Of a DNA stretch of 64,000 bases, positions 28,227 to 51,630 are shown one piece after another. Location: IMG/VR virus record IMGVR_UViG_3300033068_001747. One strand, given 5' to 3'. Made by a program: the position numbers and the translations under genes. This DNA is from a virus. Lineage: Duplodnaviria; Caudoviricetes. Within the stretch, counting starts at the first letter, position 1, and each line of letters opens with the position of its first letter. The notes beneath the pieces were generated by a model. That model was not told where the DNA came from. It did not search any database and saw nothing but the letters and a program-made list of their open reading frames with translations.

Positions 28227-29156
28227 ATGGAAAAAGTTAAATGTATTATTATAGGATCAGGACCTGCAGGGTATACCGCCGCAATTTATGCAGCAAGAGC
28301 AAATATGAAACCTGTTTTATATCAAGGGATGCAACCTGGTGGACAACTAACAACAACTAATGAAGTTGAAAATTATCCTGGATTTCCAAATGGAATAACA
28401 GGACCAGAAATGATGCAACAATTTGAGGAACAAGCTAAACGATTTGGAACAGATATAAGAGATGGTTTTGTAACTAAAGTAGATTTTAGTGGAGACATTA
28501 AAAAAGTCTTTGTAAACGAAAAAGAAATACATTGTGATACTGTTATCATATCTACAGGAGCCACTGCTAAGTACTTAGGATTAGAATCAGAACAAAAATA
28601 CCTTACTTTAGGTGGAGGTGTTAGTGCTTGTGCTATTTGTGATGGATTCTTTTACAAAGGTTTAGATGTAGTTGTAGTTGGAGCAGGGGATTCTGCTTGT
28701 GAAGAAGCTCACTACTTATCAAAAATCTGTAATAAAGTAACTATGTTAGTAAGAAGTGATTTTAGAGCTTCTAAGATTATGGTTGATAGAGTTAGAAATA
28801 CTGAGAATATAGAAATACTTTTAAATACTGAAACTATAGAAGTTTGTGGTGACGGTCAAGTAGTAAATAAAATCATTGTTAAGAATAGTAAAACTGAAGA
28901 AGTATCTGAAATACCTGCAGCTGGATTCTTTTTAGCGATTGGTCATAAACCAAACACAGATATATTTAAAGATTATTTAAAATTAGATTCTGTTGGATAT
29001 ATTGTTACTGAACCAGGAAGTACAAAAACAAATGTAGCAGGAGTATTTGCGGCAGGTGATGTTGCGGATCATGTTTATAGACAAGCTATTACTGCTGCAG
29101 GAACAGGTTGTATGGCCGCTTTAGATGCAGAAAGATACTTAGCAAGTTTGGAATAG
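28227..29156 (+). CDS. trxB: Thioredoxin reductase
   Basis: IIGSGPAGYTAAIY, CAIC, FAAGDVAD..YRQAITAAG. Confidence 0.97.
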   Translation: MEKVKCIIIGSGPAGYTAAIYAARANMKPVLYQGMQPGGQLTTTNEVENYPGFPNGITGPEMMQQFEEQAKRFGTDIRDGFVTKVDFSGDIKKVFVNEKEIHCDTVIISTGATAKYLGLESEQKYLTLGGGVSACAICDGFFYKGLDVVVVGAGDSACEEAHYLSKICNKVTMLVRSDFRASKIMVDRVRNTENIEILLNTETIEVCGDGQVVNKIIVKNSKTEEVSEIPAAGFFLAIGHKPNTDIFKDYLKLDSVGYIVTEPGSTKTNVAGVFAAGDVADHVYRQAITAAGTGCMAALDAERYLASLE

Positions 29157-29160
29157 TAAA

Positions 29161-29610
29161 ATATATTTTGTAATTTTACATAAAGGCTCGTTCGCACCCA
29201 TGCACATAGGCCACTTAAATATAATTGAAAAAGCTGAAAGAATTTTCGGTAAAGGAAATGTTATAGTTGCAATTGGAGTAAATCCCGATAAAAACTATTT
29301 AGAAAGACAAGATCCAAAAGAACTTGAAAAGACTATAAATCGTCCTGTTATTACTTATGCTAAGTTTCTACACGAACTTGTAGAAGATTATGAGAAAGAA
29401 GGTTTAAAAGTAGTTATAATCAGAGGATTAAGAAATGGTACTGATTTAGATTATGAAGTAAATCAATTTAGATTTATAAACGACTTTAAGAAAGATATAA
29501 ACGTAGTTTATATTACTTGTGACCAAGAATTTGAACATATTTCTTCTTCTGCAATTAGAAAGATTGAACAATTTGGTGGACCAGATATGGTAAAAAAATA
29601 TCTTTTATAA
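29161..29610 (+). CDS. coaD: Phosphopantetheine adenylyltransferase-like nucleotidyltransferase; start codon uncertain
   Basis: GSFAPMHIGH, IIRGLR...DLDYE, HISSSAIR; GSF lies upstream of the first ATG (29200). Confidence 0.75.
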   Translation: MYFVILHKGSFAPMHIGHLNIIEKAERIFGKGNVIVAIGVNPDKNYLERQDPKELEKTINRPVITYAKFLHELVEDYEKEGLKVVIIRGLRNGTDLDYEVNQFRFINDFKKDINVVYITCDQEFEHISSSAIRKIEQFGGPDMVKKYLL

Positions 29611-31376: not shown

Positions 31377-32633
31377 ATGAATGATAATTATAAATACGTA
31401 ACTGTTATGTTTCCCTACCCTTCTGGTAGTGGATTGCATTGTGGACACTGGTACAATTATGCAATTATAGATAGTTACTGTAGATACTTGAGATATAAAG
31501 GTGAACAAGTTTTTCAACCATTTGGTTATGACTCATTTGGTTTACCTGCAGAAAACTACGCGAAAAAAGTGGGTAGAGACCCACGAGAAGTTACTTACGA
31601 AAATATAGAAAACTTTAGAGGACAGATGAAAAACATGGACACTCAATATGAGGAAATGTTGATTACTTCTGATCCTAACTACATTGAATACACACAATGG
31701 TTGTTTAAACAATTGTATGATAAAGGATTGGCTTATAAAAAAGATGGTGAAGTTGACTTTTGTAATAGTTGTGAAACCGTATTGGCTAGAGAACAAGTAA
31801 AAGATGGTAAATGTGATAGATGTTCAAATGAAGTTGAAAAGAAAACATTGAACCAATGGTATTTTAAAATCACTGATTATAAAGAAAGATTGATTGCAGG
31901 TTTGGACCATATAGATTTCCCTGAATCTACCAAGAAAGCTCAAAGAAATTGGTTGGAAAACCAACATGATTGGTGTGTATCAAGACAAAGAAGTTGGGGT
32001 TGTCCAATTCCAATTGAAGGAGAAACTGATACAATGGACACTTTTGTAGATAGTTCTATTTATACTATAATCTATTGTATTATGAAAGGTATTAAACCTA
32101 AACCAGTTGACTTGTATGTTGGTGGTTCTGAACATGCTTGTATGCACTTGATCTATATTAGATTTATTACTATGTTCTTGCATGACATTGGGTTTATTGA
32201 CTTTGAAGAACCAATTACTAAATTGGTACATCAAGGTATGATTTTGAACCAAGGTGAGAAAATGTCTAAATCTAAAGATAATGTAGTTAGTTTGGATGGT
32301 TATGATTCTGATGAAATTAGATTTTATTTGATGTTTATTGGACATTACTTCGATGGTGGTTCTTGGTCAGATGAAAATATAATTGGTATTAGAAGATTTA
32401 TAAATAGAATGAAAACTTGGTTGGATAAAACAGGTGAGGAAACTATTGATATAGAAGCTTTCAAAAAAACTATATTTGATTTTACAGATGCGTTTAAGTT
32501 TAACAAAGTAGTGAGTTCATTTATGATTTTGTTGAACCAAAATAAAAATAAAGCATTGACTCCAGAATGTAAAGAAGAATTGATTAAATTGATTGAGATC
32601 TATATGCCTGGTATTAGAGGAAAATTAAACTAA
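31377..32633 (+). CDS. leuS: Minimal leucyl-tRNA synthetase lacking the CP1 editing and C-terminal domains
   Basis: MFPYPSG.GLHCGH, GYDSFGLPAEN, DWCVSRQRSWG.PIP, DTMDTF, GGSEHA, KMSKS; 418 aa. Confidence 0.9.
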   Translation: MNDNYKYVTVMFPYPSGSGLHCGHWYNYAIIDSYCRYLRYKGEQVFQPFGYDSFGLPAENYAKKVGRDPREVTYENIENFRGQMKNMDTQYEEMLITSDPNYIEYTQWLFKQLYDKGLAYKKDGEVDFCNSCETVLAREQVKDGKCDRCSNEVEKKTLNQWYFKITDYKERLIAGLDHIDFPESTKKAQRNWLENQHDWCVSRQRSWGCPIPIEGETDTMDTFVDSSIYTIIYCIMKGIKPKPVDLYVGGSEHACMHLIYIRFITMFLHDIGFIDFEEPITKLVHQGMILNQGEKMSKSKDNVVSLDGYDSDEIRFYLMFIGHYFDGGSWSDENIIGIRRFINRMKTWLDKTGEETIDIEAFKKTIFDFTDAFKFNKVVSSFMILLNQNKNKALTPECKEELIKLIEIYMPGIRGKLN

Positions 32634-33178: not shown

Positions 33179-33742
33179 ATGAAAAAATTATTACTACTAT
33201 TATTAATTGGACTAATGTCATTTACAACAACTAATAAAAGAATACTATTTGTCGGAGACAGTTTAAGTTGTTTTAATGGTGGTTGGCAAACACAAGTTGC
33301 ACAAGGACTAGGTAAGGATTATAAAAATGTTGCAAAGTTTGGTAAAACAACAGATTGGATGTTAAATAATCTAAAAGCTCACCTAGTAAATAATAATAGT
33401 AAATATGATACCATCTTTATTTATGGTGGTATCAATGATGCTTACTCAGGAAATAGTATAAATACTATTGAAAATCTACAGAAGATGGTTGACTTATGTA
33501 ATAAATACAATATAAAACCAATTATAATTGTGGGTTATAACCCATTAAAAGTTGCAAAAGGTAGAACAAAACAACGAGATAAATATATAAGTTTACAAAG
33601 AAAAATGTTAGATCTTAAAGGTTGTAAGATTATACCAATTGATAATTCTATAGATAGACGAGATACAGAAGATGGTATACATTTAAAAAGATCAGGACAT
33701 AAAAAATTTAGTAAATTTGTATTACAAAATTTGGAGATATAA
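33179..33742 (+). CDS. Secreted SGNH/GDSL hydrolase
   Basis: Signal peptide, FVGDSLS, GGIND, DGIHL. Confidence 0.85.
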   Translation: MKKLLLLLLIGLMSFTTTNKRILFVGDSLSCFNGGWQTQVAQGLGKDYKNVAKFGKTTDWMLNNLKAHLVNNNSKYDTIFIYGGINDAYSGNSINTIENLQKMVDLCNKYNIKPIIIVGYNPLKVAKGRTKQRDKYISLQRKMLDLKGCKIIPIDNSIDRRDTEDGIHLKRSGHKKFSKFVLQNLEI

Positions 33743-33760
33743 AAATTAGTTGTATCTTTG
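33730..33760 (+). promoter_or_regulatory. Bacteroidota primary-sigma promoter for the CUA tRNA
   Basis: TTTG-N19-TATCTTTG. Confidence 0.75.
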
Positions 33761-33778
33761 TACAACAATAAAAGAAAA

Positions 33779-33857
33779 GGTCCTTCAACGTAATTGCCTT
33801 GGTGGCAAGCTGGCTTCTAAACCCAGCGTTAAACGGGTTCGAATCCTGGTGGGATCA
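33779..33857 (+). tRNA. Atypical tRNA with CUA anticodon (putative amber suppressor)
   Basis: ggtccttc/gtgggatc acceptor, ttgcc/ggcaa D hairpin, gctgg-c-TTCTAAA-c-ccagc, cggg-TTCGAAT-cctg. Confidence 0.7.
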
Positions 33858-33869
33858 CAAAAAAGTATT

Positions 33870-34073
33870 ATGCAGTTAAATAAAAAAGATAAAGTAATTC
33901 TGAATTGTGACGAATCTGATTTTGAGAATCAAGAAAATAGAAGAAATTGTATAAATAGAATTGTTACAGTACGTGATATATTTTATAGAGGAAATAAAAT
34001 TGATACATTTTTTGTAGAAGAAAATGATTATGAATGGGTTCCAGAAAATATAGTAGTTAAAGTAAAATGTTAA
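33870..34073 (+). CDS. Hypothetical protein
   Basis: Start reassigned to MQLNKKD, downstream of the tRNA. Confidence 0.5.
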   Translation: MQLNKKDKVILNCDESDFENQENRRNCINRIVTVRDIFYRGNKIDTFFVEENDYEWVPENIVVKVKC

Positions 34074-34255
34074 ATTGGATTAAAAAATTATTTACAAAAC
34101 CTTCTAAAAAAAGACTTATTGACGATTATGAATTTAACTCAATTAGAAAAGAAAAAGAAGATGAATTAAATAGAATTTTAGATAAAATATCTGAAAAGGG
34201 TATTAAGAGTTTAACAAAAAAAGAAAAAGATTTTTTAAACAGTAACAAAAAATAA
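34067..34255 (+). CDS. DUF6576-like small protein
   Basis: ELNRILDKISEKGIKSLTKKEKDFL. Confidence 0.6.
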   Translation: MLNWIKKLFTKPSKKRLIDDYEFNSIRKEKEDELNRILDKISEKGIKSLTKKEKDFLNSNKK

Positions 34256-34278
34256 TATATAAATAAAAACAAGTAATT

Positions 34279-35199
34279 ATGAAAGCAACTTAGATTAACA
34301 AAGAAGAATCAAAATTAGTAGTTATCACAAGAAGTGATTTAACTCCTGGCTACCAAGCCCAACAATCTACACACTCTGTAGCAGACTTTTCACACGAGTT
34401 TCCTCAACAATTTAAAGAATGGAAAACTACATCTAATTCTATCATCTGTTTACAAGTAAACAATGAAAAAGAATTAAACGACTTATACATAAAGTTATCC
34501 AAACTTACCTCAGTCACAAAATTTTACGAACCAGATTTAAACGATGAACTTACATCTATTTGTTTATATGCAAATAAAGATGTCAGAAAGAAAGTTTCAT
34601 ATCTTCCACTTTTAGGTAAAAAACCAAAACTTACTTATCAACAAGTTATCATTGATATGATAGCAACACCACAAACTGATACACAAAATGTATTAGAACA
34701 CGGTATATCTGTTGCAAAACACTTTGATAAACTAATTAAAGGAGAAACCGATAACTGGAAATTACCAACTTGGCTTACAGAAAATAAAGATTTTATCTTT
34801 AGTAACCTTCACAAACTAGAAGATATTAAAGAATATCAAGTAATGCACGATTGTGGTAAACCATACTGCATGACCATTGATGAACAAGGTAAAAGACACT
34901 TTCCAAATCACGCACAAGTTTCATTTGACACATTCTCTAAGATTTCTGACAACAAAGTAGTTGCAGATTTAATCTTAAAAGATATGGTATTCCATACAAT
35001 CAAAGCAAATGAAGTAGAAGATTTTGTTAAAAGTAATTCAATCGAAACCGTTTTAACATTATTAGTAACAGCACTTTGCGAATTACACTCTAATACTTCT
35101 ATGTTTGGTGGTATTGAAAGTACTTCTTTTAAAATCAAATTTAAACAATTAGATAAAAGAGGTAACCAAGTATTAAAACTATTAAAAAATAAACAGTAA
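34279..35199 (+). CDS. Pth2-like peptidyl-tRNA hydrolase fused to an HD domain; in-frame TAG at codon 5
   Basis: ATG AAA GCA ACT TAG, then open frame KLVVITRSDLTPGYQAQQSTHS...FYEPDL..ELTSICL...LPLL continuing into the 34657 ORF (EHG, HDCGKP, HFPNHA). Confidence 0.75.
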
Positions 35200-35201
35200 T
35201 T

Positions 35202-35564
35202 ATGACAACAAAAGAATTTATAAAAATGTTACAAGATGCAGATCCTACTGGAGAATCACACGTAAGAATGTATGGTGGTGTACCAATAGGTGCCGCAAGA
35301 ATACCTGGGTATTATGATGGAAATTATGCTTATATTGATGAAAATGATAATTATGTATCTACTATGAAAGGAGATAAAGTAGATATTTATTGTAGAGATT
35401 CATTTGATATTATATCAGATAATTATGATGATGATAAAACAAAAGAAGAAAATTGGGAAATTATAAAAAGTAAATTTATATTTGATTTAGGAGAAGGTGT
35501 AACCCATAAAGAAAAAATATTTATGGATAGAGTTTATAAAGAATTTGAAGAATATATAAAATAA
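35202..35564 (+). CDS. Hypothetical protein
   Basis: ORF with PGYYDG motif. Confidence 0.55.
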   Translation: MTTKEFIKMLQDADPTGESHVRMYGGVPIGAARIPGYYDGNYAYIDENDNYVSTMKGDKVDIYCRDSFDIISDNYDDDKTKEENWEIIKSKFIFDLGEGVTHKEKIFMDRVYKEFEEYIK

Positions 35565-35606
35565 AATTTGTATATTTGCAATATAATATATAAAAAGAAA
35601 AGAGTT

Positions 35607-36197
35607 ATGGCGAACGCACCTATTACACCGAAAGAAAAATTAGCTTGGGAATTTGCCCAAAGAGCACATAAAGATCAAGTAAGAAAATTTACTGGTCTAC
35701 CATATTTTGATAATCACGTACAAAAAGTAAATGGTACATTAAAACTTTACACTACTGATGAAGCAACTTTAATTGCTGCTTTATTACACGATGTTATCGA
35801 AGATTGTTATGAAAATAAATGGGAAGCTTACAATGATATTAAAGAACTTTTTGGTCAAGAGGTTGCAGACTTAGTTATGGAGCTAACTTCTGATAATGAA
35901 GAAATGAAACATAAATGGGGTGGTAATAAAACAAACTACTTAATCAACAAAATGTTGAAAATGTCTGACAAAGCGTTTACTATTAAACTATCTGATAGAT
36001 TCAATAACATTGCAGATGCATTCACTGCATCCGAAAGATTTAGAAATAACTATTACAGAGAAACTTGTGCAATAGTCGATGCAATGGAAGAAGGTAGAAC
36101 TTTTACAAGAGTTCAAAGACAATTACTTGATGATATTCAAGCAAAACTTGATAACATCAAAAGAATATTTAAAGTGAAAAAATTAAACGAAATGTAA
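35607..36197 (+). CDS. RelA/SpoT-type HD hydrolase (small alarmone hydrolase-like)
   Basis: FAQRAHKDQVRK.TGLPY..H, AALLHDVIED, IKLSDRFNN. Confidence 0.85.
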   Translation: MANAPITPKEKLAWEFAQRAHKDQVRKFTGLPYFDNHVQKVNGTLKLYTTDEATLIAALLHDVIEDCYENKWEAYNDIKELFGQEVADLVMELTSDNEEMKHKWGGNKTNYLINKMLKMSDKAFTIKLSDRFNNIADAFTASERFRNNYYRETCAIVDAMEEGRTFTRVQRQLLDDIQAKLDNIKRIFKVKKLNEM

Positions 36198-50339: not shown

Positions 50340-50412
50340 CGCGGGATAGAGCAGTAGGCAGCTCGCAAGGCTCATAACCTTGAGGTCACAGGTTCGAGTC
50401 CTGTTCCCGCTA
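50340..50412 (+). tRNA. Initiator tRNA-fMet (CAT)
   Basis: C1:T72 mismatch, CGCGGGA acceptor, CTCATAA loop. Confidence 0.9.
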
Positions 50413-50494
50413 CTAAGTGTAAATGTCATTCTGTAATGTTGACAAGTTGGTACTTTTAGTATCCATCTTTAGTGTAATTAAAACACGACACTTC

Positions 50495-50780: not shown

Positions 50781-51630
50781 GTTCTTTGAAAATATTGTAT
50801 TATCCAACTAGTCACTTCGGTGGTTAGTAAAATGATAATCGGCGGTGTATCGTCGTTAAATAAACTACGAAAGTAGGATAAAGTGGAATCAACGTTAAAT
50901 GGTTCTGCGGCTCGTAAGAGCTCGAGTACACAAGTGGGATATCCAACGTCCTGATTAACCGAGGGCTTACGCTGTAGGTGAAATGGAATTTGGACTTGGC
51001 AATGTGGATTGTCGAGTTGATGTGGGAACACCAATAAGAATAACCCATAGGAACTCTGTAAGAAAGGTAGCTCCAACTATCTGATTGCGGGTTCCAATAT
51101 AAAAGGCAACTTAAAACCGAAAGGTAAGGTAGAGAACAGGTGGTGCTGCTACTATCCCTACTAAATGTCTACCAAGACGTTAGTTTGAAGTTTTCTTGAA
51201 GTATGGAGGCTGGGAGGCTTCACGAAGGAGTTTAGTATTTCGTTGTTCAAAAGATAACGAAGCTTACGACAGACCACTTCTTCGACACATCCACGAACAC
51301 AAAAGCAATTTACATTTGAAGTAAAATTTAAACATAAAAAGCGAAAGTGTCTGTCAGGTTTCAACGAAAGTTGACTACATACTTAGGAGCTGTTCCTAGG
51401 ACGTCAAGACCGCAAGTTAAGACGTATTCTTGCCAAAAACCTCTAAGGGGTCGAACCCTTAATCAGACCGCAAGTTTGAAGAGAGTTGAGTAATAAGAGA
51501 GTAGTTGAAACCTCAAGAAGTGATTAGTCTAACTAATCGTCAATGAGAATTACAATCCAAAAGATTGTGGATACGAAGAGAAACAATAATTCTTCAAAAG
51601 ATTCTTACAAGATGGCATAATCTCAGCCTA
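50781..51630 (+). ncRNA. Large structured ncRNA (~850 nt), GOLLD-like
   Basis: GC-richer than its flanks, no credible ORF, many GNRA/UUCG hairpins; own promoter at 50723-50754, boxA-like gttctttgaaaat, terminator at ~51665; next to a tRNA cluster. Confidence 0.6.

Follow-up and report, generated by a model that had tools for sequence, protein, structure and literature searches.

Why would a phage gene place an amber stop four residues after its start, and then keep a long open reading frame (ORF) behind it with no other codon from which to begin? This question is raised by a gene at 34279-35199 on the plus strand of the virus record IMGVR_UViG_3300033068_001747 (Duplodnaviria; Caudoviricetes). 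We analysed it within a 64,000-nucleotide stretch, here called the window, which is part of a single 132,473-bp virus contig of 28.6% GC. The gene opens with ATG AAA GCA ACT TAG (34279..34293), with the in-frame amber codon at 34291-34293 and ATT directly after it. The next 121 codons (34294..34656) contain no stop, ATG, GTG or TTG and encode a domain resembling Pth2, a peptidyl-tRNA hydrolase. In the ORF listing, the first ATG, GTG or TTG past the TAG is ATG 34657, the beginning of an HD-domain coding region (34657..35199) that is in frame with 34279 and ends in TAA. An open run of 121 codons has a chance probability of about 5e-5 at 29% GC (a rough estimate from base composition), and the product read through the TAG would be 306 residues long. 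An earlier note, made from the DNA sequence without database searches, had described this start and the ATG-less run behind it, and both the sequence and the ORF listing agree with that description.

We propose that translation of the Pth2-HD gene is gated by the phage's own suppressor tRNA, a reading to which we would give a probability of roughly 0.75 on the comparative evidence set out below. Ribosomes would start at ATG 34279, and the UAG would be a deliberate fifth codon of one gene spanning 34279-35199. At this codon, translation would either terminate after four residues or continue with an amino acid inserted by a phage tRNA with anticodon CUA. If the UAG is decoded by the phage tRNA, synthesis of full-length enzyme would require this tRNA to be present, to be charged and to outcompete release factor 1 (RF1). 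An HD-only product, starting at ATG 34657, may be made as well; this ATG aligns with a conserved internal methionine of stand-alone HD genes.

What would such a gate hold back? Pfam PTH2 (PF01981) covers residues 12-79 of the read-through product (24.6 bits vs a cut-off of 23), while phrog_14850, a family of unknown function, spans residues 40-305 (E 9e-77). A profile of the phage family also matches the solved Pth2 structure 24bt_A in the PDB over its full length (E 1.6e-7). The AlphaFold model, built on 49 aligned relatives, has a mean predicted local distance difference test score (pLDDT) of 95.3. Residues 5-110 of this model superimpose on archaeal Pth2 (3erj_A) with Z 15.3 and a root-mean-square deviation (rmsd) of 2.1 over 106 residues, and on 1q7s (human Bit1), 1wn2, 2zv3 and 1xty with Z 14-15 and an rmsd of about 2 A. 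A hidden Pth2-HD fusion in frame with the ORF at 34657 had been proposed in the earlier note, and the comparative data support it.

The active-site motifs of Pth2 are a G-K following RxDL, and DAGxT, both with catalytic roles. In the phage family, conservation reaches 90% or more at K12, R18, D20, Q29, H32, D86 and T92, and D86 falls on the Asp of DAG, whereas G-Y stands in place of G-K and D/E in place of the Thr of DAGxT, so that the motifs are kept only in part. The phage domain has several things in common with archaeal and eukaryotic Pth2 (PF01981; 3erj, 2zv3, 1q7s Bit1): the fold (Z 14-15 over ~105 residues), the N-terminal K-L-V-x-I-T-R-x-D-L, the Q-x-x-H and the Asp aligned with that of DAG. 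It differs in having G-Y for G-K and P-D-x-x-D/E for DAGxT, in a deleted loop, and in being fused to an HD domain in this lineage.

For the second half (residues 112-301), the best structural match is 3wfr_F, the C-terminal HD-type domain of a class II tRNA nucleotidyltransferase (Z 15.2 over 159 residues). Lower matches are the HD domain of GlyRS-beta (Z 11), PPX/GppA, PhnZ, PgpH and YfbR (Z 8-11); helical folds inflate such Z scores, but the 3wfr match still stands clear of the others. The HD-motif residues H190, D191, H207, H211, D235 and H239 are at least 90% conserved among 18 sequences. A Pfam search with E values up to 1 gave no HD family, and the HD assignment is one of fold and motif. 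Although the 3wfr and GlyRS-beta HD domains are the best structural matches and their HD-motif residues are kept, the phage domain shares only 16% sequence identity with the 3wfr-type protein and lacks its nucleotidyltransferase head domain. Judging by these models, both halves are similar to enzymes acting on the tRNA 3' end, and the two-part enzyme probably works on tRNA ends.

Is the early stop a peculiarity of this one assembly? We compared 49 IMG/VR loci (37-93% identity) and 80 metagenome loci, of which 54 are distinct, giving 129 loci together. Ahead of the conserved KLxxITRxD motif, the first in-frame stop is TAG in 48/49 IMG/VR loci and TAA in the remaining one. An in-frame ATG lies 2-9 codons ahead of the stop in 48/49 of these loci, and most have no canonical start after it. 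All 80 metagenome loci have an ATG, 1-7 further codons and a TAG. The earlier note had asked whether homologues keep a stop at this position; they do, and we saw no switch to a sense codon. The early stop is not a sequencing or assembly error, on this comparison, but a trait of the family. Across the 129 loci, early-stop starts are confined to Pth2 genes (126 TAG, 1 TAA), HD genes (50 TAG) and endonuclease-like inserts that copy such a start. Most relatives encode the Pth2-like and HD proteins in two separate adjacent genes, each with its own amber start, the stand-alone HD genes opening with ATG, 1-9 codons and TAG ATT. The fused form, with one lock for both domains, is found in the window gene, in loci L023 and L027, and in Tenacibaculum phage pT24.

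The inserts are homing-endonuclease-like ORFs of 311-322 codons between the tRNA(CUA) and the Pth2 gene (L015:1512-2450, L017:1505, L036:1520 and L159:1517). They open with an amber start of their own (ATG ATG TAG ATT), as though the target site had been duplicated.

One could instead regard the Pth2 part as a dead remnant or an assembly error, with the HD protein made from ATG 34657 as the sole product. That ATG is the only canonical start, and its alignment with the conserved methionine of the stand-alone HD genes fits such a view. However, the ratio of nonsynonymous to synonymous substitution rates (dN/dS) over the start-less 121 codons is 0.21-0.27 against six close relatives, from which we conclude that purifying selection acts on the ORF behind the stop. 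The predicted Pth2 domain is complete and modelled with confidence, stand-alone Pth2 genes start in the same way, and the same stop recurs in more than 100 independent assemblies as well as in cultured phages. We find a remnant or an error hardly credible.

A second alternative concerns the codon after the stop. The four-codon mini-ORF may simply end at the UAG, with the same ribosome re-initiating on the AUU next to it; an Ile codon would then be the first of the protein, and no suppressor would be involved. In the IMG/VR loci, this codon is ATT 35 times, GTA 8, ATA 3, and GTT, ATG and GCT once each; in the 54 distinct metagenome loci it is ATT 45 times, GTA 5, AAC 3 and ACA 1. The prevalence of ATT or ATA (38/49 IMG/VR loci) and ATT (45/54 metagenome loci), with ATG seen only once, is what re-initiation would predict, and the mini-ORF is very short throughout. 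The earlier note had held that a start at the ATT would count against its proposal, but the codon at this place varies and includes AAC, ACA, ACC, GTA and GGC; taken with GTT and GCT, most of these are not start codons. Nor does re-initiation account for the choice of stop: TAG is used in 128/129 loci, although TAA, which makes up about 80% of the contig's stops, would couple equally well. It also leaves without explanation the adjacent tRNA(CUA), the pairing of a TAA start with a UUA tRNA, and the avoidance of TAG as the true stop, and in a Yersinia phage the HD homologue has its TAG inside the domain. On balance, we consider re-initiation unlikely.

The sequence around the stop also differs between early and true stops. 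The base after the early stop is a purine in every IMG/VR and metagenome locus. At the true TAG stops of the contig the commonest following base is T (13/23), although this bias is only a trend (51/141 after TAA; Fisher p = 0.07). Among relatives, the gene's own true stop is TAA 63 times, TGA 36 times and TAG only twice (2/101).

Is the amber codon then one of many? Under code 15, TAG would encode Gln genome-wide, or in a late-gene block outside the contig, and the gene would be one of many that are recoded. Recoded Bacteroidota phages with suppressor tRNAs are known (bioRxiv 10.1101/2021.08.26.457843), and the genome may extend beyond the contig. However, the 132-kb contig reaches a coding density of 92% with the standard code, and total ORF length gains no more from reading TAG as sense than from reading TGA that way; for these two reasons we take the contig not to be recoded. 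Its 176 ORFs stop at TAA 141 times, at TAG 23 times (13%) and at TGA 12 times, consistent with the earlier claim that other genes here do end in TAG. Only four gaps exceed 350 bp, one of them being 34255-34657, and the gene at 34279 is the sole gene of the contig that is interrupted by an early stop. The complete pT24 genome likewise has a single ORF of this kind, and the amber starts across the 129 loci are limited to the genes and inserts named above. Recoding therefore seems very improbable to us.

The tRNA that would open the gate lies at 33779..33857 on the plus strand, 422 nt ahead of ATG 34279, at the distance of about 420 bp given in the earlier note. It is a non-canonical tRNA with anticodon CUA. 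Its acceptor side has an 8-bp stem with one U.U, a 7-nt linker and a 5-bp D stem. The anticodon arm is a 5-bp stem with a C.C closing the loop TTCTAAA, and is followed by a 6-nt variable loop. The T arm has a 4-bp stem (CGGG-TTCGAAT-CCTG), and the discriminator is A. Despite its unusual proportions, the sequence has several features of a canonical tRNA, namely the 7-base anticodon loop, U33, a purine at 37, a T loop of the form GTTCRANYC and four helices. The promoter-like sequence TATCTTTG (33753..33760, plus strand) stands 18 nt ahead of it and fits TAnnTTTG, the -7 promoter consensus of Bacteroidota; a promoter role for TATCTTTG is presumed from that consensus. The block holding it (33727-33778) is kept in all close relatives at 82-88% identity.

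With a relaxed threshold, ARAGORN reports a tRNA(cta) at 33779-33857 whose acceptor stem is poor, and in Rfam the sequence comes closest to tRNA-Sec (18.2 bits; gathering score 47). When five tRNAs of the family, not including the window copy, were used to build a covariance model, the window tRNA scored 62.1 bits (E 9e-16). This model finds 35 distinct members, all with anticodon CUA and many of them 40-130 nt ahead of an amber-start gene. Similar RNAs in other lineages are all built alike: the acceptor stem has 8 bp and is joined by an A-rich linker of 7-8 nt to a D arm with a 5-bp stem and a TGG loop; the anticodon stem, also of 5 bp, usually ends in a mismatch that closes the loop YTCTAAA; a variable loop of 5-6 nt follows; the T stem has 4 bp and carries a canonical loop; and the discriminator is A. 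The helices were parsed by script and covariance model; a MAFFT alignment was out of register and was not used. In the alignment of 35 sequences, 97% of cells are paired and both-sided changes occur in 19/22 pairs (7/8 acceptor pairs, 2/4 T-stem pairs). The covariation score is 0.925, whereas shuffles give 0.25 and slid controls 0.14 or less; all these figures lean towards structure because the alignment was fitted to the model.

tRNAs of the 8/4 type occur in bacteria and phages and are active in E. coli translation (PMC5389517). The window family has in common with these allo-tRNAs (8/4 tRNA-Ser and tRNA-His) the 8-bp acceptor and 4-bp T stems, 12 bp in all. Unlike them, it has a variable loop of 5-6 nt rather than a long Ser-type arm. 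The linker between acceptor and D stem is 7-8 nt, whereas canonical tRNAs have 2 nt. The natural anticodon of the family is CUA, and no natural phage 8/4 tRNA with this anticodon is described in that study (PMC5389517). Together these sequences form a family of non-canonical 8/4 tRNAs with an amber anticodon, which escape standard tRNA-finding programs.

How closely is such a tRNA tied to the gene? In many loci ARAGORN detects a tRNA(CUA) beside the gene, and a tRNA(CUA), canonical or 8/4, lies within the 2.5-kb flanks at 52/96 distinct loci. The sole TAA locus carries a tRNA(UUA), which is identical to a relative's CUA tRNA at 52/75 positions. Locus L058, which has no in-frame ATG-TAG start, has an array of 13 tRNAs without a CUA. 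That expression needs read-through, with the upstream CUA tRNA as one of two possible agents, had been suggested from the window alone, and the family-wide early TAG, the adjacent suppressor tRNAs and the TAA relative with its UUA tRNA all point the same way. We infer, rather than observe, that the window tRNA is expressed and charged, and the same goes for the identity of the residue it would insert.

Several observations weigh against gating by the phage tRNA. Default ARAGORN and the Rfam tRNA model (RF00005) call nothing at 33779-33857, the U.U in the acceptor stem and the C.C beside the anticodon loop are blemishes, and the covariation figures have the lean described above. The closest relatives (L011-L013, L017 and L029) carry a different, shorter tRNA-like gene at the same site (L011:2191-2267 etc.), with a CUA loop and a good T arm but no D arm and an irregular, long anticodon stem. 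This gene sits behind the same conserved promoter-like block as the 8/4 tRNA of the window. In the complete huge-phage records LR745206 and LR756502, a pattern search found no tRNA(CUA), only tRNA-Arg(TCT) and noise. Both have an amber start like that of the window gene (MNN*I and MKN*I, respectively, the asterisk being TAG in both). Strong suppression would also be costly, since 23 ordinary ORFs of the contig end in TAG without clear avoidance. Finally, some 80% of loci have ATT or ATA right after the stop, as re-initiation would also lead one to expect.

The two records without a detected tRNA(CUA) would suit another explanation, akin to the limiting-RF1 alternative of the earlier note, for which we otherwise saw no specific support, and in which near-cognate host tRNAs read the UAG when RF1 is scarce or slow on the short nascent chain, in the manner of prfB and tied to peptidyl-tRNA drop-off. 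The stop falls at codons 3-5, where termination and drop-off behave unusually, as seen in E. coli minigene work, for example with the lambda bar minigenes. However, the product is not a release factor, which makes the feedback logic indirect. A sensor of RF1 also gives no role to the tRNA(CUA) found near 52/96 loci and in 5/5 cultured-phage genomes examined, and where the stop has become TAA, the tRNA has become UUA as well. Read-through by host tRNAs therefore appears distinctly unlikely to us, and we continue with decoding by the phage tRNA as the preferred reading.

Cultured phages provide further cases. The five genomes with a tRNA(CUA) are those of pT24, ME3, XacN1, RsoM2USA and fHe-Yen9-03. 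In Tenacibaculum phage pT24, the gene starts ATG AAA TAG ATA (MK*I). This phage has three tRNAs in all, one CUA and two UAU-like, all of them within 2.6 kb upstream of the gated gene. In Acinetobacter phage ME3, a Pth2-like gene starting ATG ACT TAG ATT comes after a tRNA whose annotated anticodon is CTA. XacN1 and RsoM2USA have an HD homologue with TAG just after the ATG and a Shine-Dalgarno sequence 8 nt ahead of the ATG. In Xanthomonas phage XacN1 (L169:1549-1572), this start reads ATG AAG TAG ACC, in frame before the annotated start of ORF364, and the upstream sequence is AGAGGA. In Yersinia phage fHe-Yen9-03 (L171:1486-2052), the HD homologue is split into g411 and g412 by an in-frame TAG at 1624, inside the domain, and the tRNA(CUA) lies about 3 kb away.

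Gating would also explain truncated or split gene calls, such as the two genes of the Yersinia phage and the annotated pT24 gene, which begins 42 codons past the TAG and 31 codons into the homology. The related records of GAP32, CBB, BF and the pEa_SNUABM phages likewise show two annotated genes under one match. A separate curiosity of pT24 is a pair of 80-nt tRNAs called Ile(tat) (L059:408-487 and 775-854), which have an odd anticodon loop, TATATTA, without U33. They adjoin the tRNA(CUA), and the pT24 codon after the TAG is ATA.

The case of XacN1 deserves comment, as the authors of its genome found no target genes for its suppressor tRNAs (PMC5852040). This jumbo phage has in common with the window phage the standard code, a tRNA(CUA) and an HD-domain homologue (ORF364). 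The difference lies in where the TAG stands, since those authors considered read-through of terminal TAG stops only (PMC5852040), whereas here the TAG comes just after the start. From its sequence, ORF364 is a candidate target of the CUA suppressor tRNAs of XacN1. As the cultured phage-host pairs of pT24, ME3 and XacN1 carry the cassette, the idea is directly testable.

Phage suppressor tRNAs, and recoding as a regulator, are already known (bioRxiv 10.1101/2021.08.26.457843). Recoded phages in which TAG encodes Gln (code 15; crAss-like, Lak and others) encode suppressor tRNAs, and read-through has been proposed to act in them as a post-transcriptional timer (bioRxiv 10.1101/2021.08.26.457843; PMC9523058). 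The window phage has in common with these a phage tRNA that would read UAG, a gene that would need it, and a host with the standard code. Unlike them, it would gate only one or two genes (Pth2-like and HD) while TAG still ends others, the stop lies at codons 3-5, and the gated genes are not structural or lysis genes. Our literature search found no paper on a dedicated lock of Pth2-like and HD genes in standard-code phages.

A further parallel is prfB, the gene of release factor 2, where an early in-frame stop likewise makes the yield of a translation-related protein hang on how that stop is decoded. In prfB, the stop is UGA, decoding involves a +1 frameshift, and the product recognises the gating stop itself. 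In contrast, the frame of the window gene is unchanged, its product is Pth2-like and HD rather than a release factor, and a dedicated tRNA is encoded alongside. If the reading is right, the puzzling suppressor tRNAs of standard-code phages would have a specific and conserved target, in a natural gene switch operated by a tRNA, like those of synthetic biology.

What the switch would be for is harder to say. Our guess is that the gate ties enzymes of the tRNA 3' end to the presence or working state of a phage tRNA, as a lock on timing or dosage. A bolder version is that the tRNA(CUA) serves only to open this lock, and that this tRNA and the Pth2-like and HD enzymes make up a self-contained switch that is mobile by horizontal transfer. 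Since these enzymes would act on tRNA 3' ends, their synthesis could serve as a readout of, or exert feedback on, suppressor acylation, the RF1 balance or damage done to tRNA ends by host defences. This version seems doubtful to us, if worth considering; were it true, phages with the standard code would possess a natural translational circuit operated by a tRNA. Bacterial and archaeal genomes scanned with an alignment of the family gave no relatives; more distant bacterial relatives were not sought.

Several other features surround the cassette. Between the tRNA and the gated gene lie two small ORFs on the plus strand, one of 67 aa (33870..34073) without relatives in the fetched loci, and one of 62 aa (34067..34255) that is kept in close relatives and has no assigned function. 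The motif AATATATA (34254..34261, plus strand), 18 nt ahead of ATG 34279, had been pointed out before and is indeed enriched, with 35 copies in the window vs 15 expected and 0/100 shuffles reaching 35. ATATATA-like strings stand upstream of the ATG in many relatives, and AATATATA may be a phage promoter or an initiation-context motif. A scan of 33500-35700 for sigma-70 promoters and terminators found nothing above chance on the plus strand.

Two genes downstream of Pth2-HD is a SpoT/RelA-type HD hydrolase gene (35568-36197, plus strand), similar to small alarmone hydrolases. Its position is kept in close relatives, and it may join the same set of enzymes caring for tRNA ends. About 1.1 kb upstream of the tRNA(CUA), at 31377-32633 (plus strand), is a LeuRS-like protein of 418 aa without an editing domain. 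We considered this mini-LeuRS as a conserved partner of the cassette and rejected it, as it adjoins the cassette in the window's own lineage only.

Two further candidates for early-stop genes were also set aside. One lies on the minus strand at genome position 27114 and has the look of antisense noise. The other is a PPAT-like nucleotidyltransferase gene (29143-29610, plus strand; GSFAPMHIGH motif), whose relatives open with a normal ATG (MKTIAIYPGSF). The window copy has no ATG, GTG or TTG ahead of its essential N-terminal strand, and it may be decaying or may start at ATA. Further along the window, at 51223-51629 (plus strand), lies a full-length GOLLD RNA (Rfam RF02032, 324 bits, E 5e-92), with a tRNA-Met at 50340-50413, about 800 nt upstream of it.

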